Shown: positions 3,203 to 24,556, counted from the first letter of the stretch. The stretch: 32,000 nucleotides of DNA from Candidatus Poseidoniaceae archaeon (GCA_943789275.1 CALSTM010000003.1:60001-92000); one strand, 5' to 3'. The notes: a model not told the origin generated them from the sequence alone. Numbers and translations are program-made.

Positions 3203-5647
3203 ATGGTGTCTGAGAACAACGGGTTCGATGAAGGCCCCGAGTCTTCAGAAGAACGCAGTTTGGCTGAGTTGGTTGGAGATATTCTTTCTCCAGACGTTGT
3301 TGAGAATGCCGAGGTCTCTGAATCGATTCAACCCCGCAAAAAAAGATTCAAGCCCCGGGGAATGTACTTGGGTAACCGAAGAGATACTGGAGAGCCCATA
3401 GACATCAAACCAATGGTGCTTGCACGGCACGCTGCCATGCTTGGTTCAACGGGTTCAGGGAAAACGGTGATGGCCAAGGCGCTCATTGAAGAAGCTGCTT
3501 TGGCAAAAATTCCGTCGCTCATTATTGACCCTCAGGGGGATTTGGCACGACTCGCTCTTGGCATTGAGCCCAGTGAATTGGAAGCGCAAGACGGGGATGT
3601 GGCTCGTGCAAAAAAATTACTCGATATGTGTGAGGTGAGAATTTGGACGCCGTTGAGGAGCAAGGGGCTGCCGCTCTGTATCGACCCGTTTCGAGCTCCC
3701 CCTGCCGACCTTGATGCAGAAGAAGCGATTACTGCATGGGATATGGTTGCTGCGGGATTCACGAGCCTCGCCGGCTATGATGTTGAGAAAGCTCAAGGGA
3801 AAGTCGTCAAGCCTTTCCTGTACGAAATACTCGTTGAGGGGACGAAGCATGGGCTCAATGTTGGTGACTTTCAGGCTTTGGCGCGGGTTGTTCGCGAACC
3901 AAATCAAGAGTTTACTCGTCAACTGTACCCCGAATGTTTCTATGAAGTTGAAGAGGGTGAAGAAAAGCCCGATGTTCCGACTTGGGACGAAGTGATGATG
4001 GAACACCGTCTTACTGATTTTGAAGAGCGGTTACCAAAGACGACTCGCAATGACCTTGCAAGAAGATTGTCTGCTTATTCCTCTGGAGTCAATCAGTTGC
4101 TTTTTTCCAACGGCGTACCAATCGATATCGATGCTTTCGTAGAGCCGGCAATTCCTGGGAAGATTCCGCTCAACATCGTCTATCTCAATACCATTCAGGA
4201 TGAGGCGCAAAAGCAGTATTTCGTACAAGAACTGTCTCGAGAGTTGTACGACTGGATGTTAACGCAACAACCTGCGGATGGAGAAATCAAACTGTTGTTT
4301 TTCATGGATGAAGTTGCTCCTTATCTGCCACCTCATCCACGCAACCCTCCGGCTAAAGATTTGATTAAATTGATTTTCAAACAGGCTCGAAAATACGGTG
4401 TAGCGTGTGTTTTAGCAACACAAAACGTCAGCGATGTGGATTACAAAATCCTCGCGCAAGCAAACACCACATTCATTGGTAGGTTTACGCAACCGCAAGA
4501 TGTAGAGAAGGTTCGTCACCTGCTCAAAGAAAGCGGTGGCGACCAAGATTTGGTCGCACAACTTCCTACACTTGGCCCAGGGCAATTCCAAATGGTAGCG
4601 CCGGATGTTGACCCTGCACCGGTCCCAATACAGTGCAGATGGCTCTACACCGACCACGGAGCGCCGTTGAATGAGGATCAAGTGGAAGATATCATTTCAG
4701 ATGAAATACGCGCTTGGGCAAAAACAAGGTCGTCCGGGAATACGAAAAACAGGGGTGCTGGAGCGGCACATGCAGCCAGCCGAGGCTCATCATGGAACAC
4801 CCAAGGTCTCGATGATGAATGGGCGGTTGGGAAAGCGGAGAGTATCGTTGAAAATGCTCGAATCAAAGCCGTTGGCGGTATGACGGCCGCTGCGCACGGC
4901 CTCATCGATGACTCTGCATTTGAAATCCGCCTCATGGGTGGATTTGCAGTATTGAAAGACGGTCGAGACCCATTGTATACGATGCAAGCGGCAGCGAATA
5001 TGGCTTCAGTGGTCGTCCTAGCGTGGACTATGGTCGCCCTGATGTTTGCTTGGAGAGACGGGAGTATTGATTGGTGGTGGTTGTTGCTCAGCATGGGGCT
5101 TTCCGGGGTAACCGGGCTGGTCATTACTTTGGAAACGCTCTTGTCACATGATGCCGAACTTTTGCATCGTCTCACTCGGTTTGCACGTACGTTTCAAATC
5201 GTACTGATTGGATGGTTGTGGGGCTTACTGGTGTGGAGTTCGTTCGGATCGCTCGATTTACGAGGTGCAGGGCCTTTACTCGAAATTGTCGTCGTATGGG
5301 TTACTACGTTCACTCTTATCGAGGTCGCACACCGATTCAGACTCGGGCGCATACGATGGAACGGAGGGTCGGCATTAGACAAACTCAAGGGAATGACTGC
5401 TGTTCTAACCGAAGTAGAAATTACTGAAATGAAGGCCAATTCGTCGCAAATAATGTCCGGGGTTCGATGGGGTCTTCACGGCATTACTATGCTTTGGTTG
5501 TGCATGTTGCTGATCTTGGGGCAGGGGACAATTCCTGCCGACACTGCGGACCAATGGGGGCGCCCTACGCTGTGGCTCGCCTCATTGTACGCACTCATGT
5601 TTGGCAGCGAAACATGGTTGCGGATGCGTGGGCGAATGCCCCAGTAG
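3203..5647 (+). CDS. HerA/DUF87-like P-loop ATPase fused to a C-terminal six-helix membrane domain
   Basis: Walker A GSTGSGKT (3443..3466) is followed by LIIDPQGDL, which resembles the DPHGEY motif of HerA/DUF87. Walker B KLLFFMDE (4292..4312). RKYGVACVLATQNVSDVD...ANTTFIGRF. From aa 594 (nt 4982) I count six hydrophobic helices, e.g. AANMASVVVLAWTMVALMFAW, WWWLLLSMGLSGVTGLVITL and FQIVLIGWLWGLLVWSSF. Confidence 0.75.
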   Translation: MVSENNGFDEGPESSEERSLAELVGDILSPDVVENAEVSESIQPRKKRFKPRGMYLGNRRDTGEPIDIKPMVLARHAAMLGSTGSGKTVMAKALIEEAALAKIPSLIIDPQGDLARLALGIEPSELEAQDGDVARAKKLLDMCEVRIWTPLRSKGLPLCIDPFRAPPADLDAEEAITAWDMVAAGFTSLAGYDVEKAQGKVVKPFLYEILVEGTKHGLNVGDFQALARVVREPNQEFTRQLYPECFYEVEEGEEKPDVPTWDEVMMEHRLTDFEERLPKTTRNDLARRLSAYSSGVNQLLFSNGVPIDIDAFVEPAIPGKIPLNIVYLNTIQDEAQKQYFVQELSRELYDWMLTQQPADGEIKLLFFMDEVAPYLPPHPRNPPAKDLIKLIFKQARKYGVACVLATQNVSDVDYKILAQANTTFIGRFTQPQDVEKVRHLLKESGGDQDLVAQLPTLGPGQFQMVAPDVDPAPVPIQCRWLYTDHGAPLNEDQVEDIISDEIRAWAKTRSSGNTKNRGAGAAHAASRGSSWNTQGLDDEWAVGKAESIVENARIKAVGGMTAAAHGLIDDSAFEIRLMGGFAVLKDGRDPLYTMQAAANMASVVVLAWTMVALMFAWRDGSIDWWWLLLSMGLSGVTGLVITLETLLSHDAELLHRLTRFARTFQIVLIGWLWGLLVWSSFGSLDLRGAGPLLEIVVVWVTTFTLIEVAHRFRLGRIRWNGGSALDKLKGMTAVLTEVEITEMKANSSQIMSGVRWGLHGITMLWLCMLLILGQGTIPADTADQWGRPTLWLASLYALMFGSETWLRMRGRMPQ

Positions 5648-5800: not shown

Positions 5801-5887
5801 GCAGGGGTTGCCAAGCTTGGTCAACGGCGCTGGGATGAGGTCCCAGTCTCTATGAGTTCGCAGGTTCGAATCCTGCCCTCTGCACCA
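5801..5887 (+). tRNA. tRNA-Leu (anticodon GAG), type II with long variable arm, genomically encoded CCA
   Basis: Folded by hand. Acceptor stem GCAGGGG/CCTCTGC: 7 bp with one G-U. D stem of 3 bp (GCC/GGC) with GG in the loop. Anticodon stem CTGGG/CCCAG with loop A-T-GAG-G-T. Variable arm CTC-TAT-GAG. T arm GCAGG-TTCGAAT-CCTGC. Discriminator A followed by CCA. Confidence 0.9.
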
Positions 5888-9879: not shown

Positions 9880-11475
9880 ATGCACTCGGGCTATTCGCGG
9901 GCAACATTGCTGATTCTGTTGATTTTTTCTGCAACCTTTTCCGGTTGTTTTGGAGAAAACGAAAATCGAATGCCTGGAGCATCAGACCTTGTCGTTGAAG
10001 AGGCCGATGCGCTCCAAGGAGGGGCGTGGCAATCCATCACGCTACGAGCTGAAGTTGACCTCTCTGTCTTCATCCCTTACTTCATTCAAGATATGGGGTC
10101 AATGAGGGCGCAAAATGGAACGGTGTTCGATATTCAGGCTGGACAATCCCAAACAGTCAATATTTTGTTCCCCCCCCGTAATCCTGACATCGTACTGCTC
10201 ATTGGAGAGTACGCTCGTTCGGACTGGCCAATACGAGCGGCTGACGAATCCTGGATGGATTGGATGCTCGACGATTCAAAGGGTTCCAGCATAACAATCG
10301 TTCCGAATGAAGATGATGGTGGGATGTGGCCATGGGTCGTTCCAGGGGTTTCCTCCGGTGGTGATGTTTCAGTATTGCAATTGTCAACAGAACGCCCACA
10401 GCGTGCAGACCTTACCGAGGAAAACGGTGTAGGTGCGAGCGGTGGATGGTTGAATGGTAGAGACGTGTACGAATGGGTTGATTTCATCACGGATGAAACC
10501 CCAGATCCTCTCGACTTAGCTGATGGTGCGGTTGGTTATCTTGACCGATGGATTGGTAACGGAAACCCCGCCTATGAAGACGCTATCACGTACTTTGAAG
10601 GAGTTATGATTGGATACGGTCTTGATGTCAAGGTTCACAGATTTCAGTCCGGCACATTGTGGGCTGTGAACATTTGCGGATACAAAACTGGAACCGTCTA
10701 TCCTGACGAATGGTTGGTTTTTGGTGCTCACTTTGACATTGCTCCAATCGCAACACCGACCTCTTTCGTACCGGGCCTTGAGCAGACAGGATATGGGACA
10801 AGAACGGGTGCATACGACAACTCTGCTGGTACATCCATGGTGCTTACCACAGCGAGTGTTTTGGCTGATTTCGATGCACGTAGAACAATGGTGTTTTGCT
10901 TGTGGTCCTCTGAAGAAGAAGGGTTGTGGGGTTCAAGCGCATTTGCAGGCGACCTACCTGATGGAGTCACCGTCAGCAATTACCTCAATCTCGATATGGC
11001 TGGAATAAATTATCCCGGTGATTTCGCACTTTCAGTGTACCTTGGTCCAGACGGAACTGGAGATGTCATCGATCAATCGGGCATGTACCACCTTGCAGAA
11101 TGGATTGGCGCTGATGCTTTTGACCTCTCATACCAAATGGAGCGGGGTCGGGCTGAATGGGCTGCTGGAGGCGAGGAGCCACTTTGGCAGAACAATTACC
11201 AGGATGTTGTTGCGATTTACGAAAGTCCAACTGCTCGAAGTGACCATCAGCCTTTCCAAGACATAGGCGTCGCTACACTTGGATGGAACGGTGTTGTCGA
11301 TGGATATCCTTGTTACCACAAAATCTGTGATAAGTTGCCTGAAATGGAAGAATACATGACTACTGAGAATGCAACGGGTGAAGCGAACCTTGTTCACTCG
11401 TGGGACATCGTAACATGGTGGGCCGTATACGCCTTCTTGCACATGGACCAAACGCCAGTTCCGAATGAATTGTGA
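9880..11475 (+). CDS. Secreted M28-family metallopeptidase (aminopeptidase-like), paralog 1
   Basis: Signal with lipobox-like LLILLIFSATFSGCFGEN. AHFDIAP, GAYDNSAGTSMVL, CLWSSEEEGLWGS, LNLDMAG and SDHQPF are the Zn-ligand and catalytic blocks of M28 peptidases. Collinear similarity to 15064..16830. Confidence 0.8.
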   Translation: MHSGYSRATLLILLIFSATFSGCFGENENRMPGASDLVVEEADALQGGAWQSITLRAEVDLSVFIPYFIQDMGSMRAQNGTVFDIQAGQSQTVNILFPPRNPDIVLLIGEYARSDWPIRAADESWMDWMLDDSKGSSITIVPNEDDGGMWPWVVPGVSSGGDVSVLQLSTERPQRADLTEENGVGASGGWLNGRDVYEWVDFITDETPDPLDLADGAVGYLDRWIGNGNPAYEDAITYFEGVMIGYGLDVKVHRFQSGTLWAVNICGYKTGTVYPDEWLVFGAHFDIAPIATPTSFVPGLEQTGYGTRTGAYDNSAGTSMVLTTASVLADFDARRTMVFCLWSSEEEGLWGSSAFAGDLPDGVTVSNYLNLDMAGINYPGDFALSVYLGPDGTGDVIDQSGMYHLAEWIGADAFDLSYQMERGRAEWAAGGEEPLWQNNYQDVVAIYESPTARSDHQPFQDIGVATLGWNGVVDGYPCYHKICDKLPEMEEYMTTENATGEANLVHSWDIVTWWAVYAFLHMDQTPVPNEL

Positions 11476-15063: not shown

Positions 15064-16830
15064 ATGGCCGGGTCAAATGGAGCGCAGGCTTTGCTCCTCG
15101 TTCTGATAATGAGTCTTGCACCTCTCTCTGGGTGTTTTGGAGAAAATATGAGTTCTCGCGTGAACTCTGAGAGTGATGTTGTTGTGACGCCTGAAACGCT
15201 TTCGGGTGGAGTCTTCCAAGGGATGACGATTGCTGCTGAAAAAGACCTCTCAGCATTTATTCCTTACCTGATCTTGAATGAAGATTCTGGTTATGTTCAA
15301 AATTCGACCGTTATCGATTTAGAGGCAGGAGAGTCTGTATTACTGAATGTGTTGGCTCCACCGAGAACCGATACTGCTGTTGTTTTGATTGGAGATTTTG
15401 GGCGTGACACATGGCCAATTCGGTCCATTGATGAGTCGTGGAAAACGTGGTATGAGCGCGGCGGCCACCAATCGAATAACAACCCTGGAATTGTGAGGGT
15501 AGCGGGAGTAAATGGTTCCCTTGATACGGTGGAAAACCTCAACGGTAGCGCTGATTCAGCAATTGCAATCACTCTTGAAGTGAAGAGGCAAATGGCTGCA
15601 GCATACAGTGAAGCTGATGGTGGGCGGCATTCCACTGGAATCGTTGACGGTCGAACGACGTTCAACTACCTCTCGATGTTATCTGATGAGTCCTCGGACC
15701 CCACAGATGCTGCTGACGGCGCTATTGGTTACCTCGACCGGTGGGCGGGGCAAGGAAACGCTGCATACGAAGACGCTGCACAATATCTCATTCAAACACT
15801 CGAAAGTTTTGGTTTAGAAGTCATCACCCAGAGGTTCACCTATGATTCATTGATGACGGGCGCTCAAAATCCTGAAGCATACAATATTTGTGGCTACAGA
15901 TTTGGCGACGTTGATCCGGACAAGTGGATGGTGTTTGGGGCACACTTCGATATTGCACCGCCAGTTAATGGTGGTATGTTGGACCCACACTTCTTCGGGC
16001 GAACATATGGAACACGGGTTGGGGCCTACGACAATACTGCTGGAACAAGTATGGTTTTGACTGTGGCTGAAGCAATGGCTGGGTACAATACTCGTAACAC
16101 AATGGTGTTCTGTTTATGGTCGGGAGAAGAAGGTGGAAAGCGCGGCAGTGATTTTTGGACTGATTACTGGGTAAAGGAAGAGAACCCGAATGTTGAAGTT
16201 ACCAATTATGTGAATTTGGATATGGCTGGCGTGAACTGGCCTGGTGGCGGTGGCGCACCTTGTGGCAACGGACACGGCGGCGGTGCTGCAGGATGCGACC
16301 CTGAGCCAGAAGTCGACCCAGATGGATATCCAAAAGATTCTGAAGTATGGCCAATGCGTGTGTATATTGGCCCAAGTCTTGACCACGATGTGATGAATCA
16401 ACCTGGTATGGTTGGTCTCGCGATGTGGATTGGTTCTGATGCTATTGGTGTTGAAGAGCAAATGGCCCCACTTGTTGGCGAAGGATACGATGCAGAAACT
16501 TGGAAGGTTGATGATTGGATGGCAAAAGACCGACCTGAAATCATCGTCTACGAGGATACAACTGCGCGTTCTGACCACGCAACTTTCCAAGATAATTTAG
16601 GAACGGTTACAATGGGCTTTGGAGGCCTTGTCGATGGATATTGGTGTTATCACCAAACGTGTGATACGGTTGATGAGATGGTCGATTGGATGGACACCAC
16701 GGGTAAAGACTACGGAGATGAACAATCTGGAACAAGTAACCTTGTTGATGCACTTGATACGATTACTTGGTGGGCGACCTACTCGTTTTTCCACCTTGAT
16801 GAAACACCGGTTCGCAACGCCTACCTCTAA
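15064..16830 (+). CDS. Secreted M28-family metallopeptidase, paralog 2 (with Gly/Cys-rich insertion)
   Basis: Signal LVLIMSLAPLSGCFGEN. AHFDIAP, GAYDNTAGTSMVL, CLWSGEEGGKRGS, VNLDMAG and SDHATF. Aligns along its whole length with 9880..11475 but carries the extra segment GGGGAPCGNGHGGGAAGCDPEPEVDPDGYPKDSE. Confidence 0.8.
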   Translation: MAGSNGAQALLLVLIMSLAPLSGCFGENMSSRVNSESDVVVTPETLSGGVFQGMTIAAEKDLSAFIPYLILNEDSGYVQNSTVIDLEAGESVLLNVLAPPRTDTAVVLIGDFGRDTWPIRSIDESWKTWYERGGHQSNNNPGIVRVAGVNGSLDTVENLNGSADSAIAITLEVKRQMAAAYSEADGGRHSTGIVDGRTTFNYLSMLSDESSDPTDAADGAIGYLDRWAGQGNAAYEDAAQYLIQTLESFGLEVITQRFTYDSLMTGAQNPEAYNICGYRFGDVDPDKWMVFGAHFDIAPPVNGGMLDPHFFGRTYGTRVGAYDNTAGTSMVLTVAEAMAGYNTRNTMVFCLWSGEEGGKRGSDFWTDYWVKEENPNVEVTNYVNLDMAGVNWPGGGGAPCGNGHGGGAAGCDPEPEVDPDGYPKDSEVWPMRVYIGPSLDHDVMNQPGMVGLAMWIGSDAIGVEEQMAPLVGEGYDAETWKVDDWMAKDRPEIIVYEDTTARSDHATFQDNLGTVTMGFGGLVDGYWCYHQTCDTVDEMVDWMDTTGKDYGDEQSGTSNLVDALDTITWWATYSFFHLDETPVRNAYL

Positions 16831-19800
16831 TCCCTGCGGGTGAATTCTCTCTGATCAATTGGTATTGTTTCATCGATGTCTTCGCTGCTATCATAGCCGG
16901 CTCGATGCATTGTATAGCGAATGAAGCCCCAAGCAACTTGGAGTGCGTATTTCTTTTGTTCGGGCGTAAGGCCTCCACCAATTTGTTTCCGGCCAAGGAA
17001 ATAGAAGTGGTCTTTGGAAAAGTTGTTCGGTGGATTGCTAAAATCTGCGGGGGAGAATATGTTCTTTTCTTTGAATAAATAATCGACTGGGTCCATCATT
17101 AGGCGGAAGAAATCACGGAGTTGTTCGTTGTTTGACATTAGAGAGCTTAGCGTAAGGGTAGAATCGCCGTTCTGTTCGATATCTTCGACGAGGGTATCCA
17201 TGAATTCATCAAAAGAATTCGTTTGTTCATTTCCGATTTTCATCATTTCAAACAACACCCGCCAATCCAGTTGATGATCTTCTAAGCGTGTTTCCTTTGT
17301 AATTCCGGGTGTACGAAGTATCGAAAGAGCAAGTGTTCGCCCGGGTGAGGATTTCATTGAAGTGTGGGGTACAGGGGATGTTTTGCTATCAAAGCGGTTC
17401 GCCATAGCATAACAGATATGATGGATAATTCGCTTCCTGTTTCGACTGTTTGCTCCACCAATCGCTTTTGATAGGCCGTTGAGATTGTTGATAATCCATT
17501 TTTTACGTGGATCCTCGGCGCCTCTTGATGAAAGTGCAGGTGGATATGCGATGTCGAATGCCGACATGCGTGGTTGGTGTATGCCAGAGTTCTGGTCTGG
17601 TAATTGGCGAACGGTTGTTGTACCGTCTTCATTTGTCGTCTCGATTGAAGAACGATAGTAAAACGGTACAAAATTAACAGATGTGCGAATTCTTTGAATT
17701 GTCTTTTCCGGTAATCCAAACTGTTCAGCAAGTTGCTTTGTAGTGCGTCCACTCGAGGAAATTAACTCGGCGTCTCGACCAGAAATGCCTCTGTGTTTTT
17801 GGAATCGGTAAGCAGGATGAAAGCGCATAGGGTTCACATTTCTCGCTTCTTCAAAGCCTTCAGGCGTGACATCTAATCCATCGACAAGTCCTGTTAAAGC
17901 TCCGATAAAGAAGGCGGTTCTGGAATTGATGTTGAAATGCGACTCGACACGGGTTAAAATTCCTATTTTTTGCAGTTCTTCACCTTTTTCAGGAGTCCAA
18001 TCGTTCGGAGGAATGTACTCTCCACAATTCACCATGGAGAAGAATATTTGTAAAAACCTGAGCGGGGAGCACTTTCGGAAGTGGTGTTCGAAATAACTTT
18101 TCAGGGAGTCAACCACCTTTTTTCCCCCTTGAGGTGAAACGAATGTCTCGTGTTCAACTTCTACAGATGCTGCGTTACCACCCAGAGAGAATTGGTGCTC
18201 TAATGCTCCATACAGCAAAATCGCCAACCATGCTGACCACGCCTCATCGACTCGCTCTTCGTTGGTGAAAGGTATGCGTGTCGTGAGAACATTGTCGGGG
18301 TTGGTTAAATCTTCGGTAAGATGAGCGAAATGTTCGGAAAAATCCTTTTTCCGCTTCTTTTCCTCATCAGTTCTGCCGCTTAATTCTGCAAATATCTTCG
18401 GTGCAACGTCATTGACGCTTTGGTAAATTCGATTGTAAAAACCACGCTCACTCGTGAGTATTCGCTCACCGTCTGTATTTGATGCCGTGTATTGAAGAAC
18501 AATTTGGAATAAGAAATGAAGTCGTTCTTCGATGAATTGTGGGTCGAGTCGATACGACATATCTCGGGCATTGGTCGTGAATACCTCGCCAAGTTTACTC
18601 GCTTGCCCCGAATCGACATGGTGTTGTTCAGCTTTGAGGGTTAGCCTCGGACCTGCTATTAGATCGATCATTAGGGTACTAAACATTTGTTCAGCGCGTT
18701 TACTTCGTCGTAAAACCCCTCCTTGGTCAAACTCGTCAAGAAGGTCGTTCATAAGACCTGAATTTTGGACAAGTGCCTGGGATGGGAAATTCATGAACAG
18801 CATGAGGTCGATGGCGAGTTGTTTCGATTTGCGCCAAGTTTGTACCTTTGAGAGGGATTTGCCAATCAGAGAGAGATAATCGAAAAAGGCGGATGAGGAG
18901 GATGGTGGTCGGATTCCTTCAACATTGAAATACCATGTCAACCAAAGGGATTTGCCATCGTTCGAAAGGGGTTTTGGTGGACTTGAAGCCAGGCCGTCAA
19001 GGGTGTTTGAGACAACTGCGGACCAGAATTTCGCATTGTTAAACAACCGACGCATAGGGAGTTCCGGGTCTTCACCCCCGAACTCAATAAATTGGACATC
19101 AAGGATATCCACAAAAAACTCTTCAAGAGACGGGTGGCTTTTCCTCGCAAAATGATTGAGGAGATGCGGTTTCTCAGCATGGAAAAAGAAATTCTTCACC
19201 ATCGCTAAACTGGTCTCCTCGGGCCATCTCATGGCCGGTGTGTTTTCTGTAGACAGTGCCCAAATCATCTGGATTGTGTGCCTCAATTCTTGGCGTTTTA
19301 TCGATGCACTCAGTAGATCGTTTATGGCGCCAGGAGCCTCAACAATTGATTCCCAATCTGGATAGGAATGCGCCATCTCAACCCAGAATGGGGATTGATT
19401 TGGAGCATTAAGGATTTTTTCTATCTCGTCACGTGATGAAGGTGCTAGAGAAAATGTGTCTGGTGAAAGTATATGTTCGAACACCGAATGGTCTATCTGT
19501 TCAAAGATATGCAGTAAAATTTTGTCGAGGGTGTGGGCTTTAGCATCTAAAATGACATTTTTACCACTCATTCGCTCTACAGTTTGAACAAGTGAGGGTT
19601 TGGTAAAGTGAGGTTTGAATTGAGCATTGAATGAAAGATTGTCATCGATGATGACGCCTTCTCCTTTTTTCAGTTTGTATTCATCAAAATGTATTCCGAG
19701 AATGTCTTTACCGATGAGGTGGAGAATATACGGATGGTGTTCTGCGCACATCGATGCGTCTTGTAACACATATTCAAGGAAGGGTTCAAGTAAATCTCCA

Positions 19801-22800
19801 AGTGAATAATAGGTCTCAATAGGAAGGGTTCCGTCAAAACACCCTTTCGACAAGGACGTCAAAAATATCTCAATGACTCCGGACGACGACTGGTCGGAAA
19901 GCTCACCCCACCCCGGAGTGGTGCTGTACTGTTTTCTAAAGGCTGTGAGGGCGGTTGGGAGTCGAACTTGATTGCCGATGAATGTGTCTGCCTCTGCATT
20001 GCTGGTTCCTGAAAGAAGGAGGGTTGAAAATACGGGTATTGGCGCTGATTGAGATTTGATCAAATCACTGTTTTTTACTGCAAGTAAGTTGCTCCACGAT
20101 TGCCTTTCATTTGCAAAGTTGTTGATTTGCGACTCATCAAGAACCCATCGGAGATAATCGTTGATGCTGTATCCTTCAACGTTGCTTTCCCTACGTAGAG
20201 CGTCTGAGATAAATTGGTCGAGATTTATCTTTGCCTGGCTCATATCAAGCATTTGAATTTCGAGTTCTGAAACTGTTTGCTCAGAAAGGGTTGGTAGGCT
20301 GAAGACAATGGATTCAGGTGCGTCAAAATAGGTGTTAATTCTCAACGCATGCTCAGCCTTTGCTGTTTGTGGAAAAGGTTCGCGAGTAACAAGAAGGAGG
20401 CGGAATTCAGGGCGAGAAAGGAGCACATTCATTCGAGTCATGATGTTTTGATACAATTGTAGAAAGTTCTTCACCGATTGTTTGGACGGTTCGGAATCTC
20501 TTTTCATCCATGTGCGAATTCGTTCTTCAATACTGGATTTGTTCAATCCTTTGTTTAAATTCCCTTCCGCATCGGAATAAAACATCTCATAGGGGTTGAA
20601 GATGACAACACCGGAAAATTCCAGCCCTTTGACCGTCTCGCCGTTGTAAGTTGTAAAATTTCCAACCGATTCCAAATCCTTTCCAAGAGTTGATTCGTAA
20701 GGAGTAATGATGGAAGTCTTCGAAGTGACAGATATTTCTCGGGCGTTGCGGTGAAGTGAGTCAATAACATGTCGAACATGCTCATCGGTAGGTGCAGATA
20801 TGATTGATATTTTACAATCGGCGTTCTTTTCATTTGCCATATCGCTGATTTTGAGGAAGTCGCGTGGGTAATTTGGCATCGTTTCTGTTGGGTATTGATC
20901 TGCAAAAGTGCTACGGAAAGTGTCGTTAAGTACTGCAATGTTCGGGGCATTGCGGTAAACTTGTTTCAGCGTCTGTAAATCTGAATCAATGTTTTGAGAG
21001 ATCCCGAAAGAAAGGAGGCGGTCGAGTTCGGAGTGGGCTCGCTCTTCAGTCCATGTCAAAATTTCAATGGTTTTTTGGCAGAAATCAAACCATGCAAAAC
21101 CGCTCCTGTTCACCGTTTGCAAATCGTCTCCGGCAACCAAAATCGATTGAGAAGAAAACCCTGGTTTGAGAAGGAGGAGAAGCAGTGCCATCGTTGAAGG
21201 GGTTATGTCTTGAACTTCGTCGATCATCAACATGTCAAACCGGTGCTCAGACTTCCCACGGTTACGCGTCAGTTGTTTTCGAGCGAGGAACGACGCGTGA
21301 GGGTAAATCTTCCACTTGCTGTCAAGCGTGTAAAAACAAAATTGAGCGAAGAGTTCCCTTTGAGTTCTGGTTCCTGTGACCGAGCGGCCTTCGTGTTCTT
21401 CGTAAGCTGTTTCATCATCAATTGTCTTGTTCACAGCACCACTTGAATGGTGAAAAAGGGTGGTGAAATCAGACCATGCATCTGTGTAGGACGGAGGTGG
21501 CGTTGTACCTTGGCCCTTCTTTTCAAACCAGAGATCAAGTGCTTGTTTGAAGCGAGAATAGTCGAGAAGTTTGACGGAGTGAAGCATCGAATCTTCCGAT
21601 TCCCGCAACACCCCCAAAATGATGTTGGCAACGCTTCGTGCACCAGAACCAGTTTTCTCCATGCCCATAATTCCGCTGTTTTGAGGGCGGCTTGCTCGGT
21701 CAGACCATTGAGCGACGACGCTGTCAACGAGTGGTTTGTTAAGGGTAACATAACGCCACAGCATCTTCTTCGAAGTCGTCTTGAGGTGTTCGACGATGAA
21801 GTTGAGGCAGAAGTATGTTTTCCCAGTCCCTGGTGCCCCACGTAAAAAGAGTGCAGCGTCGTTGTCTGAATCCATGTAATCGCGAAGAATGATGTTTTTC
21901 TCGTTCATTTCATTCTCTTCGGTATCGGAAAGAATATTCAGTTTGTAGGCTTCTTCAATCCAAAGATTCCAATCTGCATTTTCTGCACCACCAATCTCTG
22001 GGTGATAGCTCAAAGCGGCCCCTGTCCAATGAACACGGGCTTTCTCAGCCTCTCTGCGTAGGAGGTCTTTTCCACTTCCTGGTGGGAGTTTACGGAGCGC
22101 AACCGATGGGAATTGGAAGGTTGTTACTTGATTGGAAGTTTGACTGAAAAGTGTTTCCTCAAACAACAACTGATGTGAAAATTCAAACCACTCGTCTGTG
22201 CTTTTTAAGAGGCCGAAACGCATACAGGCGTCGAAGAAAAGGGTTACGTTTTCGTTGTTTAAAGATCGTTTCGATAGTACTTCGTCGCGTAATGGTAAGA
22301 AGGTTTGGAGTTCTTCAGTGTAAGCACTGTTTGGATCGATGGTTGATGAAGCGCCCAGTTTAGTAATTTCTTCAGATAACTCATTTCGATATTTTTTGAG
22401 TTGGGTTGCACTTTTCTTGAGTTGAGTTGAACAGTTCATAACAAACTCTGAAATGAATGCTTCCAGTGAATCCTTAGAATCTCCGCTAAAGGAGGTGGTA
22501 TAATCAGATGCTGAAAAGCGTAGTCGGTGTGTTCGCGACCTTCGAGTAAGCCCCATGATGTGTTTCTCGAAATGAGTTTGAAGCTTTGTTACTCCTGATG
22601 TGTTCATCGTTGAATTTGCTAGAAGATGAATCTGAATCTTAGACCATAAAGAGCGGTAGTAAAGGGTTGAAGGGAGTTCAAGGGTCTGCGTTCCAAGTGG
22701 ACTTGTCCAAACCAAATCCATATGCTCGCCAAGTTGTTGAAAGAACTCGTGTGAGAGTTCGATGTCTTGGGTGCTTTTTACAGTCCACCTGCTTGCGAAA

Positions 22801-23540
22801 AGCGGCATGTATGCTTGGAGATGAGTGGTCCAATTCCTCCATCGTTCATCGTCCAGTTGACTGGGGTTTGGAAACGGGGTACAATGGGTGCTTTCAAGTG
22901 GAGGGAGTTCGATATCCATTGTCCTCTTCAAAATTTTCGTGGGTAATTTTTCTTTGAAATAATTCCACTCATAAGGCCTGCACGTCCAAAATACAGAGAC
23001 GCCCTGTGTTGAGGCTTCGATGAGAAATTCATTCCATTTATCCATGGTGTTCGCCGTACCCGCAGCCTCATCCAAAAGAAGAATGTCAAGTGTGTCAAGC
23101 ACAATGAGTGGTGTTCTGCCTGCCTCCTGTGCAGATTTGGCAAAGTTTTCGAGTGCGTTTTCGTGTTCGGGTGCGTCTTCGTAAAGCAGCGACCCCGTAC
23201 GTATATTTTCCCACATTGACTGGTCTTGGGAAGATTCGGCACGTTGAAACTCAGAATACATCAGTTGGAAGTGTTGTTTAAATTTCTTCATCCCACACAG
23301 AAGTCGGGTGAGATTACGTAATTCTGTGGTCTTACCTAAGGATGGATGTCCGTAGAGCATGAGGTTGAGGGTATGACCTGGGGATGATTTCGAAAGATCT
23401 TTCAGAATACGTTTTCCGATGTAGTTTTGAAAATTACTTGTCACAATAGACCCGTTGGCAAGAAACCGGTCTATGCGTGGGATGAGGTTTCCTTCTTGAG
23501 AGAGTTTTTGAGAAATCTTAGTAAAGATGTCAGAATCCAT
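16827..23540 (-). CDS. Giant (2,237 aa) multidomain protein: N-terminal NACHT/STAND-like NTPase, SF1 UvrD-like helicase, ~1,190-aa uncharacterised C-terminal region with an HTH-like segment
   Basis: Uninterrupted 6.7-kb ORF. P-loop 1: GHPSLGKT (23328..23351), LIVLDTLDILLLDE (23067..23108), FWTCRP (TCRP at 22974..22985). P-loop 2 and helicase motifs: GAPGTGKT (21816..21839), LMIDEVQD (21207..21230), LVAGDDLQTV, QVYRNAP, VKGLEFSGVVIF (20598..20633). HTH-like GRTTKQLAEQFGLPEKTIQRIRTS lies within 17679..17780. GGTGAGGTGAG sits 3 nt upstream of the ATG. Confidence 0.85.
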   Translation of the reverse strand: MDSDIFTKISQKLSQEGNLIPRIDRFLANGSIVTSNFQNYIGKRILKDLSKSSPGHTLNLMLYGHPSLGKTTELRNLTRLLCGMKKFKQHFQLMYSEFQRAESSQDQSMWENIRTGSLLYEDAPEHENALENFAKSAQEAGRTPLIVLDTLDILLLDEAAGTANTMDKWNEFLIEASTQGVSVFWTCRPYEWNYFKEKLPTKILKRTMDIELPPLESTHCTPFPNPSQLDDERWRNWTTHLQAYMPLFASRWTVKSTQDIELSHEFFQQLGEHMDLVWTSPLGTQTLELPSTLYYRSLWSKIQIHLLANSTMNTSGVTKLQTHFEKHIMGLTRRSRTHRLRFSASDYTTSFSGDSKDSLEAFISEFVMNCSTQLKKSATQLKKYRNELSEEITKLGASSTIDPNSAYTEELQTFLPLRDEVLSKRSLNNENVTLFFDACMRFGLLKSTDEWFEFSHQLLFEETLFSQTSNQVTTFQFPSVALRKLPPGSGKDLLRREAEKARVHWTGAALSYHPEIGGAENADWNLWIEEAYKLNILSDTEENEMNEKNIILRDYMDSDNDAALFLRGAPGTGKTYFCLNFIVEHLKTTSKKMLWRYVTLNKPLVDSVVAQWSDRASRPQNSGIMGMEKTGSGARSVANIILGVLRESEDSMLHSVKLLDYSRFKQALDLWFEKKGQGTTPPPSYTDAWSDFTTLFHHSSGAVNKTIDDETAYEEHEGRSVTGTRTQRELFAQFCFYTLDSKWKIYPHASFLARKQLTRNRGKSEHRFDMLMIDEVQDITPSTMALLLLLLKPGFSSQSILVAGDDLQTVNRSGFAWFDFCQKTIEILTWTEERAHSELDRLLSFGISQNIDSDLQTLKQVYRNAPNIAVLNDTFRSTFADQYPTETMPNYPRDFLKISDMANEKNADCKISIISAPTDEHVRHVIDSLHRNAREISVTSKTSIITPYESTLGKDLESVGNFTTYNGETVKGLEFSGVVIFNPYEMFYSDAEGNLNKGLNKSSIEERIRTWMKRDSEPSKQSVKNFLQLYQNIMTRMNVLLSRPEFRLLLVTREPFPQTAKAEHALRINTYFDAPESIVFSLPTLSEQTVSELEIQMLDMSQAKINLDQFISDALRRESNVEGYSINDYLRWVLDESQINNFANERQSWSNLLAVKNSDLIKSQSAPIPVFSTLLLSGTSNAEADTFIGNQVRLPTALTAFRKQYSTTPGWGELSDQSSSGVIEIFLTSLSKGCFDGTLPIETYYSLGDLLEPFLEYVLQDASMCAEHHPYILHLIGKDILGIHFDEYKLKKGEGVIIDDNLSFNAQFKPHFTKPSLVQTVERMSGKNVILDAKAHTLDKILLHIFEQIDHSVFEHILSPDTFSLAPSSRDEIEKILNAPNQSPFWVEMAHSYPDWESIVEAPGAINDLLSASIKRQELRHTIQMIWALSTENTPAMRWPEETSLAMVKNFFFHAEKPHLLNHFARKSHPSLEEFFVDILDVQFIEFGGEDPELPMRRLFNNAKFWSAVVSNTLDGLASSPPKPLSNDGKSLWLTWYFNVEGIRPPSSSSAFFDYLSLIGKSLSKVQTWRKSKQLAIDLMLFMNFPSQALVQNSGLMNDLLDEFDQGGVLRRSKRAEQMFSTLMIDLIAGPRLTLKAEQHHVDSGQASKLGEVFTTNARDMSYRLDPQFIEERLHFLFQIVLQYTASNTDGERILTSERGFYNRIYQSVNDVAPKIFAELSGRTDEEKKRKKDFSEHFAHLTEDLTNPDNVLTTRIPFTNEERVDEAWSAWLAILLYGALEHQFSLGGNAASVEVEHETFVSPQGGKKVVDSLKSYFEHHFRKCSPLRFLQIFFSMVNCGEYIPPNDWTPEKGEELQKIGILTRVESHFNINSRTAFFIGALTGLVDGLDVTPEGFEEARNVNPMRFHPAYRFQKHRGISGRDAELISSSGRTTKQLAEQFGLPEKTIQRIRTSVNFVPFYYRSSIETTNEDGTTTVRQLPDQNSGIHQPRMSAFDIAYPPALSSRGAEDPRKKWIINNLNGLSKAIGGANSRNRKRIIHHICYAMANRFDSKTSPVPHTSMKSSPGRTLALSILRTPGITKETRLEDHQLDWRVLFEMMKIGNEQTNSFDEFMDTLVEDIEQNGDSTLTLSSLMSNNEQLRDFFRLMMDPVDYLFKEKNIFSPADFSNPPNNFSKDHFYFLGRKQIGGGLTPEQKKYALQVAWGFIRYTMHRAGYDSSEDIDETIPIDQREFTRRD

Positions 23541-23594
23541 AATCTCACCTCACCGCATAAAGCAGTACTGCCTGTAAACGTGTTCGCTTTGACG

Positions 23595-23605
23595 TTATAT
23601 AAAAA
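23595..23605 (-). promoter_or_regulatory. TATA-box-like element (TTTTTATATAA on the minus strand) upstream of the giant ORF
   Basis: Lies in the 80-bp gap between the M50 protease stop (23621) and the giant ORF ATG (23540), about 55-65 nt upstream of the ATG. An RBS-like GGTGAGGTGAG follows at 23544..23554. Confidence 0.45.
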
Positions 23606-23620
23606 GAGAAGGAAATGAGA

Positions 23621-24556
23621 CTAGAACAGCAGTGCGATTGTCTTGAGGAGTGCGGTCGGGGACCAAAGTCCAAGCGGGAAGGCGGAAAGGGCAAGAATTG
23701 CAAAAATAGAGATGGTTATGTAAAAGGCGTTCTCGCTCCAATCCTTCACTTTCAAACCATCGAGAGGGCCCCATGGAATCATGTTAAACAATCCTAATGC
23801 AAGATTTGCACCAATCCAGTATCTGCCAGCATCAATGAGCATTTTCTGCCAAACCAGTTGCCCACCAACCAAATAGAGGGATCCTGAAATATCAGCTTCA
23901 AAGGCCCCGGTTAGACCGAGTATGATGCCCCAAATCGGTATTCCAATCAGGAAAAGACCGAAATTAACGGCGGGGCCGGCCAAAGCGATGTGTCCGTTTT
24001 GACGGCGGGTAACGAGTCCTGCCACCATGACTGCGCCTGGAGCCATGAACAAAATCCCAATAAAAAAGGAAAGAAGAATACCGAATCTTAAGCCCTTGGG
24101 ATCGGCACGAAATTCAGCCCAACAGCCGTTTTTCTTCGCTACGATTTTATGTCCAATTTCATGAAAGAGGAAGGCAGGACCGATGGCGAGAAGAAGAACT
24201 GGCATAGAAAGAAGGAATTGGACGGTCCAAGTGGAAGTCCCTAGCGTACCAGTGCCCCAAATCCCGCCAACCGACATAAACCCCAACGCAATGGTGAATG
24301 CTGCCATTGCAAGTCCAAGATGTCGTTTTTCTTCACTGCTGAAGTGCCATATTCCGCCTTCGTGTAACTTCGCAGGTTGACTTTGGGACATGCCCATGAG
24401 TTGTGCGAAAAGGGGGTTTGCTTTCGCAGTCGAGCCGGTATCAAAGTGAATGGTGCCGTCATGGGAGCGGCGTGCGTGAACGCGATGTATACGTGGATTT
24501 TGGCGGCGGAAGGGGTCGTCTTCCAGAATATCAGCTCGTGAATCCCTCCCTGCCAT
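23621..24556 (-). CDS. M50-family site-2 protease (intramembrane zinc metalloprotease)
   Basis: HEIGHKIV (HExxH) within a TM helix, and the second motif NLALGLFNMIPWGPLDGLKV (NxxPxxxLDG). Multiple TM helices. Confidence 0.8.
   Translation of the reverse strand: MAGRDSRADILEDDPFRRQNPRIHRVHARRSHDGTIHFDTGSTAKANPLFAQLMGMSQSQPAKLHEGGIWHFSSEEKRHLGLAMAAFTIALGFMSVGGIWGTGTLGTSTWTVQFLLSMPVLLLAIGPAFLFHEIGHKIVAKKNGCWAEFRADPKGLRFGILLSFFIGILFMAPGAVMVAGLVTRRQNGHIALAGPAVNFGLFLIGIPIWGIILGLTGAFEADISGSLYLVGGQLVWQKMLIDAGRYWIGANLALGLFNMIPWGPLDGLKVKDWSENAFYITISIFAILALSAFPLGLWSPTALLKTIALLF

Follow-up and report, generated by a model that had tools for sequence, protein, structure and literature searches.

A giant NACHT-like/SF1 helicase fusion at a variable locus of Poseidoniaceae archaea: a candidate single-gene conflict protein

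STAND/NACHT receptors form a common backbone of innate immunity in animals, plants, fungi and bacteria. The bacterial NACHT (bNACHT) antiphage proteins were described in a paper in which the word 'helicase' does not occur; the strict NACHT Walker-B signature given there is D[GAS]hDE, and bNACHT01 combines a conserved engine with a diversifying C-terminus (Kibby et al., bioRxiv 10.1101/2022.07.19.500537). In the Avs paper, helicase appears only as a phage target (PMC13581612). Superfamily 1 (SF1) helicases have been noted as effector domains in conflict systems that depend on NTP, usually alongside a PIN domain (Kaur, Burroughs, Iyer, Aravind 2020, PMC7159879). In this work, we analysed a 32,000-nucleotide (nt) stretch of DNA from Candidatus Poseidoniaceae archaeon (GCA_943789275.1, CALSTM010000003.1:60001-92000; hereafter the window), in which one gene (16827..23540, minus strand) encodes a giant protein of 2,237 amino acids (aa) combining a NACHT-like NTPase, an SF1 helicase and an alpha-helical tail. 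Judging from sequence-based evidence, there is about an even chance that it is a stand-alone, NLR-like conflict or defence protein (probably antiviral) of Poseidoniaceae with the helicase motor as its output.

The giant gene was defined from the list of open reading frames (ORFs), its translation, full-length homologs and the ratio of nonsynonymous to synonymous substitution rates (dN/dS). The ORF is single and uninterrupted (2,237 codons). Every motif quoted in an earlier reading made from the DNA alone (the sequence-only reading) was present in the translation at the residues claimed: GHPSLGKT (aa 64-71), LIVLDTLDILLLDE (aa 145-158) and FWTCRP (aa 184-189) in module 1, and GAPGTGKT (568-575), LMIDEVQD (771-778), LVAGDDLQTV (801-810), QVYRNAP (860-866) and VKGLEFSGVVIF (970-981) in module 2. 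The domain order is a NACHT-like STAND module (aa ~46-470), a linker, an SF1 UvrD-like helicase (556-1050) and a helical tail of ~1,190 aa with a possible helix-turn-helix (HTH). An assembly chimera of two neighbouring genes, for which the unusual size of the ORF is the sole point in favour, was refuted and keeps a negligible probability: more than 70 full-length relatives (1,970-2,416 aa) retain both P-loop modules, and the same full-length architecture was found on dozens of independent contigs in JGI, ENA, NCBI, Logan and Tara assemblies. Consequently, the ORF is no join of two genes, in agreement with the single gene that had been read from the DNA. The G+C content of the giant gene (0.42-0.47) lies within that of the whole window (0.42-0.53), with immediate flanks mostly at 0.44-0.50; any AT enrichment of the gene over its surroundings is slight at most. 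In one metagenome-assembled genome (MAG ARS60, L013 9992-17192) the giant gene is broken into ORFs of 455 and 1,924 aa, either a frameshifted pseudogene or an assembly error.

Conservation was analysed in an alignment of 23 full-length homologs and in an hmmalign alignment of 71 family members, each 1,900 aa or longer. In the latter, helicase positions up to R863 were covered in 71 of 71 sequences, KGxE in 67 and NACHT-module positions in 61-66, since the members that diverge most could not be aligned there. Wherever the respective module was aligned, K70, D149, D152, R188, H456, K574, DEQD (774-778), GD..Q (804-808), R863 and KGxE (971-974) were invariant. The two NTPase sites are the only enzymatic centres conserved in the giant protein.

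The NACHT-like P-loop nucleotide-binding domain (NBD; aa ~46-230, 22851..23405, minus strand) was recognised from Pfam, invariant residues and Foldseek, with Walker A at G64-T71, Walker B at D149-T-L-D152 and the sensor-1 arginine R188 in TCRP. Pfam NACHT (PF05729) matched aa 61-202 at 30.8 bits (cut-off 26.7); on the same module (aa 46-202), AAA_22 passed its cut-off with 31.5 bits, and AAA_16 narrowly missed its own (32.3 vs 32.6 bits). The NACHT match was often weak or unrecorded in the homologs, and Pfam support for this domain across the whole family appears marginal; two homologs carry the automatic NCBI name 'NACHT domain-containing protein'. GHPSLGKT agrees with the Walker A pattern GxxxxGK[ST], K70 being invariant in the 61 relatives aligned there. 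FWTCRP is a sensor-1 motif of the hhhT/SxRP type ~30 residues past Walker B, with R188 invariant in 66 aligned relatives.

The helical and winged-helix domains of the STAND module (aa 231-470, 22131..22850, minus strand) were delimited by AlphaFold2 (AF2) secondary structure and the conservation profile. The AF2 model, made for aa 1-1100 from 11 sequences (predicted local distance difference test, pLDDT, 72.5), has helices in this region and then a beta-hairpin (445-454). A helical insert (aa ~350-440) is poorly conserved. The winged-helix domain (WHD) motif FEFSHQLLFEE (aa 452-462, nt 22155-22187) is of the FxHxxxQE type, and H456 is invariant in 66 aligned relatives; the winged-helix histidine of STAND proteins contacts ADP. 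Foldseek searches of the PDB with this model returned NLRP9, NLRC4 and NLRP7 (E 7e-6 to 4e-5). By analogy, ligand-triggered oligomerisation and an immune output are proposed for the NACHT module. The linker between the two NTPase modules (aa 471-555, 85 residues, 21876..22130, minus strand), defined by conservation and pLDDT, is among the best-conserved stretches (majority fraction 0.81-0.84 in 12 sequences), and AF2 confidence is low there (pLDDT <50 for aa 467-541). The linker may be an interaction or autoinhibitory element.

The SF1 UvrD-like helicase core (aa 556-1050, 20391..21875, minus strand) was identified from Pfam, PHROG, Foldseek, motif conservation and dN/dS. The SF1 motifs are in order: I (GAPGTGKT, 568-575), Ia (VTLNKP, 598-603), II (DEVQD, 774-778), III (GDDLQTV, 804-810), IV (YRNAP, 862-866), V (VKGLEF, 970-975) and VI (NIMTRMNV, 1032-1039). 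Motifs I-IV are invariant in 71/71 relatives and motif V in 67; T1035/R1036 of motif VI are conserved in the window's clades and variable further out, where R, H, Q, A or F is found at position 1036. Pfam AAA_19 (PF13245) matched aa 563-810 at 34.3 bits (cut-off 25.1). UvrD-helicase reached 21.2 bits on aa 762-810, under its cut-off of 23, and UvrD_C was unmatched in the window protein; PF00580 matches are recorded for some relatives. A PHROG DNA helicase matched at 7e-9. Foldseek with the aa 1-1100 model against the PDB returned HelD, UvrD, PcrA, SETX, Nsp13 and SLFN11 (E 9e-9 to 1e-5); for UvrD (2is6, 2is4) and PcrA (1qhg, 1pjr), E was 4e-8 to 1e-6 and the target-normalised template-modelling (TM) score 0.39-0.47. 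In the model, the two RecA-like domains are superposable on those of UvrD/PcrA, and ATP-dependent translocation or unwinding activity of the helicase is predicted. Both halves of the NACHT-type/SF1 UvrD-like fusion put forward by the sequence-only reading are thus backed by profile, motif conservation and predicted fold, and the motifs go beyond coincidence.

The C-terminal tail (aa 1051-2237, 16830..20390, minus strand) was characterised by AF2, searches and divergence as mostly alpha-helical. Its AF2 model (pLDDT 64) consists mostly of helices and is best at aa ~1220-1840. Fold searches in PDB and BFVD returned no match at E<1e-3, only weak HEAT/ARM-type solenoids; a PDB sequence search with the tail profile gave zero matches, and the same profile against 5.8 billion proteins returned family members only. 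The tail, by these searches, is restricted to the giant-protein family; the >1,000-aa tail of the sequence-only reading measures ~1,190 aa. Pfam recognised no domain in aa 1051-2237 other than weak HTH matches, and a conserved catalytic motif was not found in the family alignment of the tail, where the invariant residues are scattered (five Pro, four Trp, three Leu, two Arg, and one each of Asn, Ser, Gly, Glu and Tyr). The HTH-like segment (aa ~1917-1952, TTKQLAEQFGLPEKTIQRIR; 17685..17792, minus strand) was noted from weak Pfam matches and the model. It matched Xre-like-HTH at 0.09 and HTH_23 at 0.26 in the window protein, and in homologs HTH_23 at up to 1.3e-3 and GerE at up to 2.9e-5; the model has short helices at this place. 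An HTH in the tail is suggestive only. Past aa 1400, the tail shows 25-38% identity where the helicase shows 62-76% (alleles at the 45% level), so that the tail is, from these alignments, the fastest-diverging part of the giant protein.

The dN/dS of the whole giant gene was 0.07-0.11, and this purifying selection indicates that the gene is functional. The lowest values of the gene were those of the helicase (0.03-0.05; 0 in the two closest pairs), followed by the NBD/WHD (0.08-0.13; 0 in the closest pair); the tail ranged from 0.04 to 0.33. Both NTP sites are under strong purifying selection. The 103-kb JGI contig Ga0213869_10000033 (L017) has an M50 identical to that of the window and a giant gene 99% identical (dS 0.03), which makes it either the window's source or a very near relative. 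Between these two alleles, 15 of 15 nonsynonymous changes fall in the tail and 0 in the first 1,050 residues.

The giant gene is bordered upstream by an M50-family peptidase gene (23621..24556, minus strand; assigned by Pfam) and downstream by a convergent M28-family peptidase gene (M28b; 15064..16830, plus strand; assigned by Pfam), whose stop codon overlaps that of the giant gene. We used as anchor set 80 metagenome loci with an M50 60-100% identical to that of the window; M50 is core (80/80 loci) and lies outside the inserted unit. The M50/M28b junction contained the giant gene in 11 of the 80 loci, was empty in at least 45 (M50 stop to M28b stop 20-50 nt on) and contained unrelated cargo in ~10. 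Occupied and empty states were interleaved along the M50 identity scale, and in some empty-site genomes M28b was 91-96% identical to the window's. From the empty-site junctions, the insertion unit is the giant gene plus its 80-nt upstream spacer and nothing else, a clean single-gene indel. The spacer, missing from empty-site genomes, harbours a TATA-box-like TTTTTATATAA (23595..23605, minus strand), a candidate archaeal promoter ~55-65 nt before the ATG, and a Shine-Dalgarno-like, putatively ribosome-binding GGTGAGGTGA (23545..23554, minus strand) 4 nt before the ATG, both read from the sequence. These candidate sites and the one-gene unit of the empty sites accord with the earlier description of a solitary gene that appears to have a promoter of its own. 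Insertion at the M50/M28b junction is not limited to the giant gene, and the site is a flexible hotspot in general. Other cargo included, in L052 and L059, an MFS-like transporter of 511 aa; in L041 and L042, a secreted protein of 972 aa; in L056 and L057, a secreted one of 1,029 aa together with a GAF-like protein of 150 aa; and in L080, L087 and L089, a protein of 164 aa with a lipoprotein-like one of ~320 aa.

Alleles of the window clade are 45-100% identical, and deep divergence was found between genomes with very similar surroundings. L020 and L012 share flanks at 91-93% nt identity and M50 at 98% aa, while their giant proteins are 60% identical (97% in the last ~37 aa). M50 is 92% and the giant protein 57% identical between L031 and L037, and the corresponding values for L044 and L047 are 84% and 68%. 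For the closest distinct allele (L008, 88% aa), the giant-gene dS was 0.93, inside the flank range of 0.5-1.2. Against L012 and L005, giant-gene dN was 0.32 compared to 0.03-0.24 in the flanks, which indicates an older allele lineage imported by recombination. An intragenic breakpoint ~1 kb into the gene, considered for L020 and L012 from a blastn segment pair, was dropped; the protein profile diverges from the first 100 residues. The giant gene is consequently an accessory, allele-swapping insertion at a fixed hotspot. Two loci of MAG CTOTU8138 (L009 and L011) share the same upstream flank (beta-CASP...AlaX, M50, giant gene) and carry alleles 79% and 45% identical to that of the window; this bin probably mixes two populations. 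M28b is itself a mosaic: its aa identity varies between 65% and 100% with no relation to that of M50.

In Poseidoniaceae loci the giant gene is always located between M50 and convergent M28b, in the order AlaX, hypothetical, M50, giant gene, M28b, hypothetical, LVIVD, SCO1. Taken alone, this fixed order looks like housekeeping synteny, and a housekeeping role with conserved synteny had been named as the finding that would speak against a defence protein. Synteny is indeed conserved, yet presence/absence polymorphism with deeply divergent alleles is expected of an accessory conflict gene rather than of a housekeeping gene. Besides M28 and M50 peptidases, the window has genes for an HVO_0163-type HTH protein, AlaX, SCO1 and an LVIVD protein, and also, among others, for a HerA-like ATPase, a beta-CASP nuclease and a fatty-acid desaturase. 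The neighbours are ordinary genes for metabolism and the secretome, and they assign the window to Poseidoniaceae. A further indel polymorphism affects M28a (window 9880-11475), which is absent between SCO1 and DDAH in L001 and L010. The HerA/DUF87-like ATPase (814 aa, window 3203-5647, plus strand) matched the PADLOC models HerA (3e-21) and mad8 (9e-19). Its gene, 93% conserved in L001, runs into the start of a divergently oriented gene for a DegT aminotransferase; the ATPase could be a housekeeping HerA or half of a defence pair.

The ordinary neighbours and the non-defence cargo of the hotspot would also suit a strain-variable, non-immune nucleic-acid factor, either a HelD-like remover of stalled RNA polymerase or a repair/recombination helicase, in which the STAND module would be a switch and the HTH tail would target DNA. 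The best fold matches (HelD bound to RNA polymerase, and UvrD), a weak NCBIfam helicase IV match, the HTH in the tail and purifying selection along the whole gene point in the same direction. However, the site lacks the gene in most related genomes, and alleles differ by 40% where flanks are more than 90% identical. Moreover, the HelD TM scores are low (0.32-0.36), the PDB sequence match has E=0.45, and the NACHT-type switches studied so far are overwhelmingly regulators of immunity or cell death. We regard such a factor as somewhat unlikely, at about one half the weight given to a conflict or defence protein.

Presence/absence and allele replacement would also fit a gene left behind or carried by a mobile or selfish element, for example one for a replication initiator-helicase (Orc/Cdc6-like AAA+ with winged helix) or an addiction module that spreads at the hotspot through homologous recombination. 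The succession of AAA+/WHD, helicase and HTH resembles the logic of replication proteins, weak Orc1/Cdc6 matches were recorded, and distant relatives lie within clusters of unannotated ORFs. Against this, no integrase, meaningful flanking direct or inverted repeats or tRNA target was found at the insertion site, nor any other element gene, the unit being one gene and its 80-nt spacer; the Orc/Cdc6 matches are limited to the helicase P-loop (aa 542-592), and in sensor-1 and WHD the motifs match the STAND/NACHT type. A mobile-element origin is therefore improbable. A viral origin was rejected: no family member was found in IMG/VR viral contigs, and PHROGs matched just a generic DNA helicase. The sole tRNA of the window, tRNA-Leu(GAG) (5801-5887, plus strand), is 11 kb from the giant gene and unconnected with the insertion site.

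The family was searched for beyond the window clade. The MAGs in which close homologs were found bear the labels Poseidoniales, Poseidoniaceae or Euryarchaeota. HMMER with the aa 1-1100 profile against 1.84 billion cluster representatives found 271 proteins at E<1e-3, and ~35 of these clusters are proteins of 2,000-2,400 aa with both modules matched in one stretch. All the HMMER-found clusters derive from environmental metagenome assemblies (few named, one labelled Tara Oceans). Cdc48 beside a group-2 member of the family is closest to Euryarchaeota and Poseidoniaceae MAG proteins (58-60% identity). From these labels and similarities, the family appears confined to Poseidoniales-like planktonic archaea.

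The distant loci differ in their surroundings. Nine were examined (L004, L007, L014, L016, L097, L098, L100 and the P0027 and P0040 loci), and in 9/9 the giant gene was directly preceded by an unannotated ORF of 485-630 aa. This ORF overlaps the giant start by 4-41 nt in 8/9 and ends 9 nt before the start in L098. No similarity of these upstream ORFs between groups, to the window or to the tail was detected by blastp, phmmer or tblastn, and they have no Pfam domain. L098 and L100 have upstream a Metallophos phosphoesterase gene and genes of 108 and ~150 aa, with 320-aa and 640-aa genes nearby; group-2 loci have in common neighbours of 553 aa (C-terminal wHTH-like), 525 aa (Zn-ribbon-rich) and 375 aa. 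The unannotated neighbour ORFs of group 2, L098 and L100 have no Pfam domain and no homolog in the window. A ThiF-Cdc48-ThiF trio was observed a few kb from group-2 giant genes (L004 13722-18148; P0027 and P0040 loci), and a JAB-domain gene and a 1,188-aa SAP-domain protein near that of L098 (L098 17633-18718). This ubiquitin-like machinery is either linked to the giant gene or part of the lineage backbone.

The sequence-only reading had considered the gene, if a system at all, to be a single-gene one. This stood for the window clade, in which no such partner occurs in the 20 kb flank, and did not extend to the distant loci with their close upstream ORF. The giant gene might thus be the surviving core of a multi-gene system whose partners were lost or relocated in the window clade, in line with the upstream ORF of all nine distant loci, the Metallophos and two small ORFs of L098 and L100 and the common neighbours of group 2. 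In that case, the functional unit would be more than the window protein by itself. On the other side, the window clade keeps the gene intact, with purifying selection across alleles of 45-100% identity and no partner in the flank, and the upstream ORFs are unalignable between groups. This possibility, which overlaps with the stand-alone conflict protein, is unlikely, though less so than a mobile element.

Searches for the whole architecture gave no match among described proteins. NCBIfam had no model near its cut-off (helicase IV, 14.8 bits vs 543), PDB sequence searches matched the N-terminal half at P-loop level only, and no Pfam or PDB entry covering the full architecture was found. The literature search returned no description of a NACHT-SF1 fusion and no link between Poseidoniales and NACHT. 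With PADLOC, NCBIfam, Pfam, PDB and literature searches all without a match to the whole architecture, the earlier statement that no described family with such a fusion was known stands.

The stand-alone conflict protein can be outlined as follows. At rest, the NACHT module would hold ADP, with the tail and linker keeping the protein closed. The fast-evolving tail, possibly together with a helicase scanning nucleic acid, would sense an invader protein or an aberrant DNA/RNA structure, and nucleotide exchange in the NACHT module would lead to oligomerisation, by which the helicase motors would be switched on or concentrated. No nuclease, protease, TIR, SIR2 or other effector domain was recognised in the giant protein, and for this reason the motors themselves are the proposed effector: they might work on replication or transcription complexes of the invader's genome, which they would unwind or strip, or they might burn NTPs. 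NTP consumption has been reported for the UvrD-like GajB. Presence/absence together with divergent alleles suggests an undescribed antiviral sensor. In a narrower and more tentative form, which we consider possible and nearer to doubtful than to even, the protein would represent an undescribed type of NLR-like receptor native to planktonic archaea, in which the STAND switch gates a helicase, no toxic effector is present and a strain-swapped tail gives specificity. By mechanical means, such a receptor would attack the nucleic acid of an invader or immobilise it, its tail being exchanged between strains by recombination at the hotspot.

Several observations weigh against a conflict or defence role. 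The ~45 residues before the NBD contain no detected effector domain, and the order effector-NACHT-sensor is thus absent. Walker B reads DTLDI (D149-T-L-D152-I) in the window clade, with T in the place of G/A/S and the second acidic residue missing. DSLDE is found at this position only in the deepest family members (P0061, P0063, P0068, P0076 and P0101); because of this difference, the family is most readily read as descended from a canonical NACHT, the window clade being a derived form. Positive selection was not demonstrable: no region had dN/dS >1, measurable values being 0.03-0.33 with synonymous sites saturated for most allele pairs. The junction cargo other than the giant gene (MFS-like transporter, secreted proteins) is unrelated to defence. 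PADLOC detected no known defence gene adjoining the giant gene, the nearest match being the conserved HerA-like ATPase 11 kb off, and on the giant protein it gave only GajB/AbiO fragments at E~1e-3. We know of no experimental precedent for a helicase as the sole effector of a STAND protein, and the host Poseidoniaceae (Marine Group II archaea) are uncultured. The defence protein suspected from the DNA therefore keeps its STAND/helicase architecture and its accessory pattern, and the evidence for the defence role as such is circumstantial. We put even odds on the giant protein being a conflict protein of the STAND/NACHT kind, one whose architecture and predicted output would both be new.

If this is true, a NACHT module connected with a helicase rather than with a toxin domain would be a new type of output for the STAND/NACHT class. 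If the narrower receptor reading holds, Marine Group II archaea and their magroviruses would gain their first candidate gene of innate immunity; our literature search found no paper linking these archaea to a specific innate-immunity gene. The giant gene would then be a concrete, synthesisable test case for NLR-like switches controlling motors, and the hotspot pattern (presence/absence, with alleles of 45-100% identity in near-identical backgrounds) is useful for metagenomics of virus-host relations in the ocean. If non-immune, it would still be a regulated helicase of an unusual kind, in which 1,190 aa form a domain of no recognised fold.

The known systems were finally compared with the giant protein, starting from the motor. 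HelD/helicase IV provided the top Foldseek matches (8qn8_H, 8qu6_H and 6yxu_H, E ~1e-8), with a UvrD-like 1A/2A core and idiosyncratic insertions. However, TM scores of 0.32-0.36, a PDB sequence E of 0.45 and the lack of a recognisable HelD N-terminal arm leave a likeness at fold level only, and HelD has no STAND module. The giant protein shares with GajB (Gabija) and Nhi an SF1 UvrD-type motor, so a motor or NTP-consuming output is possible. Unlike in GajB and Nhi, this motor forms one protein with a STAND module and a tail of 1,190 aa; unlike in Gabija, there is no GajA/OLD partner, TOPRIM gene or nuclease domain, and the neighbours are peptidase genes. The GajB hidden Markov models matched partial stretches only (E 8e-4 to 6e-3), far below significance, and by every profile test the motor appears not to be a member of GajB, Nhi or HelD.

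The conflict systems of multicellular bacteria, in which an SF1 helicase is the output of a STAND/NTPase-centred system, are similar in concept (PMC7159879). There, the helicase typically goes with a PIN nuclease and is connected via effector-associated adaptor domains, whereas here PIN is absent, the fusion is direct and the hosts are planktonic archaea; by analogy, the literature precedent for a helicase output is conceptual only. With Avs, the giant protein has in common the logic of a STAND switch and a large helical C-terminal sensor, and recognition of invader proteins by their shape would suit the fast-evolving tail (PMC13581612). Avs differ in having nuclease, protease or other N-terminal effectors, and no Avs model matched the giant protein. 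Compared to bNACHT proteins (Kibby et al.), the giant protein lacks an N-terminal effector and has an SF1 helicase between the NACHT and the C-terminal region. Its C-terminus is a unique helical domain instead of LRR, TPR, WD40 or a short NCH, its host is archaeal and its Walker B in the window clade is DTLDI. Nevertheless, it resembles them in an NBD with Walker A, a Walker-B acidic pair, a sensor-1 TxRP and a winged-helix His, in a conserved NTPase with a fast-diversifying C-terminus, and in a single-gene, strain-variable locus. With bNACHT01, it shares the same pattern of conserved engines and a fast-diverging C-terminus.

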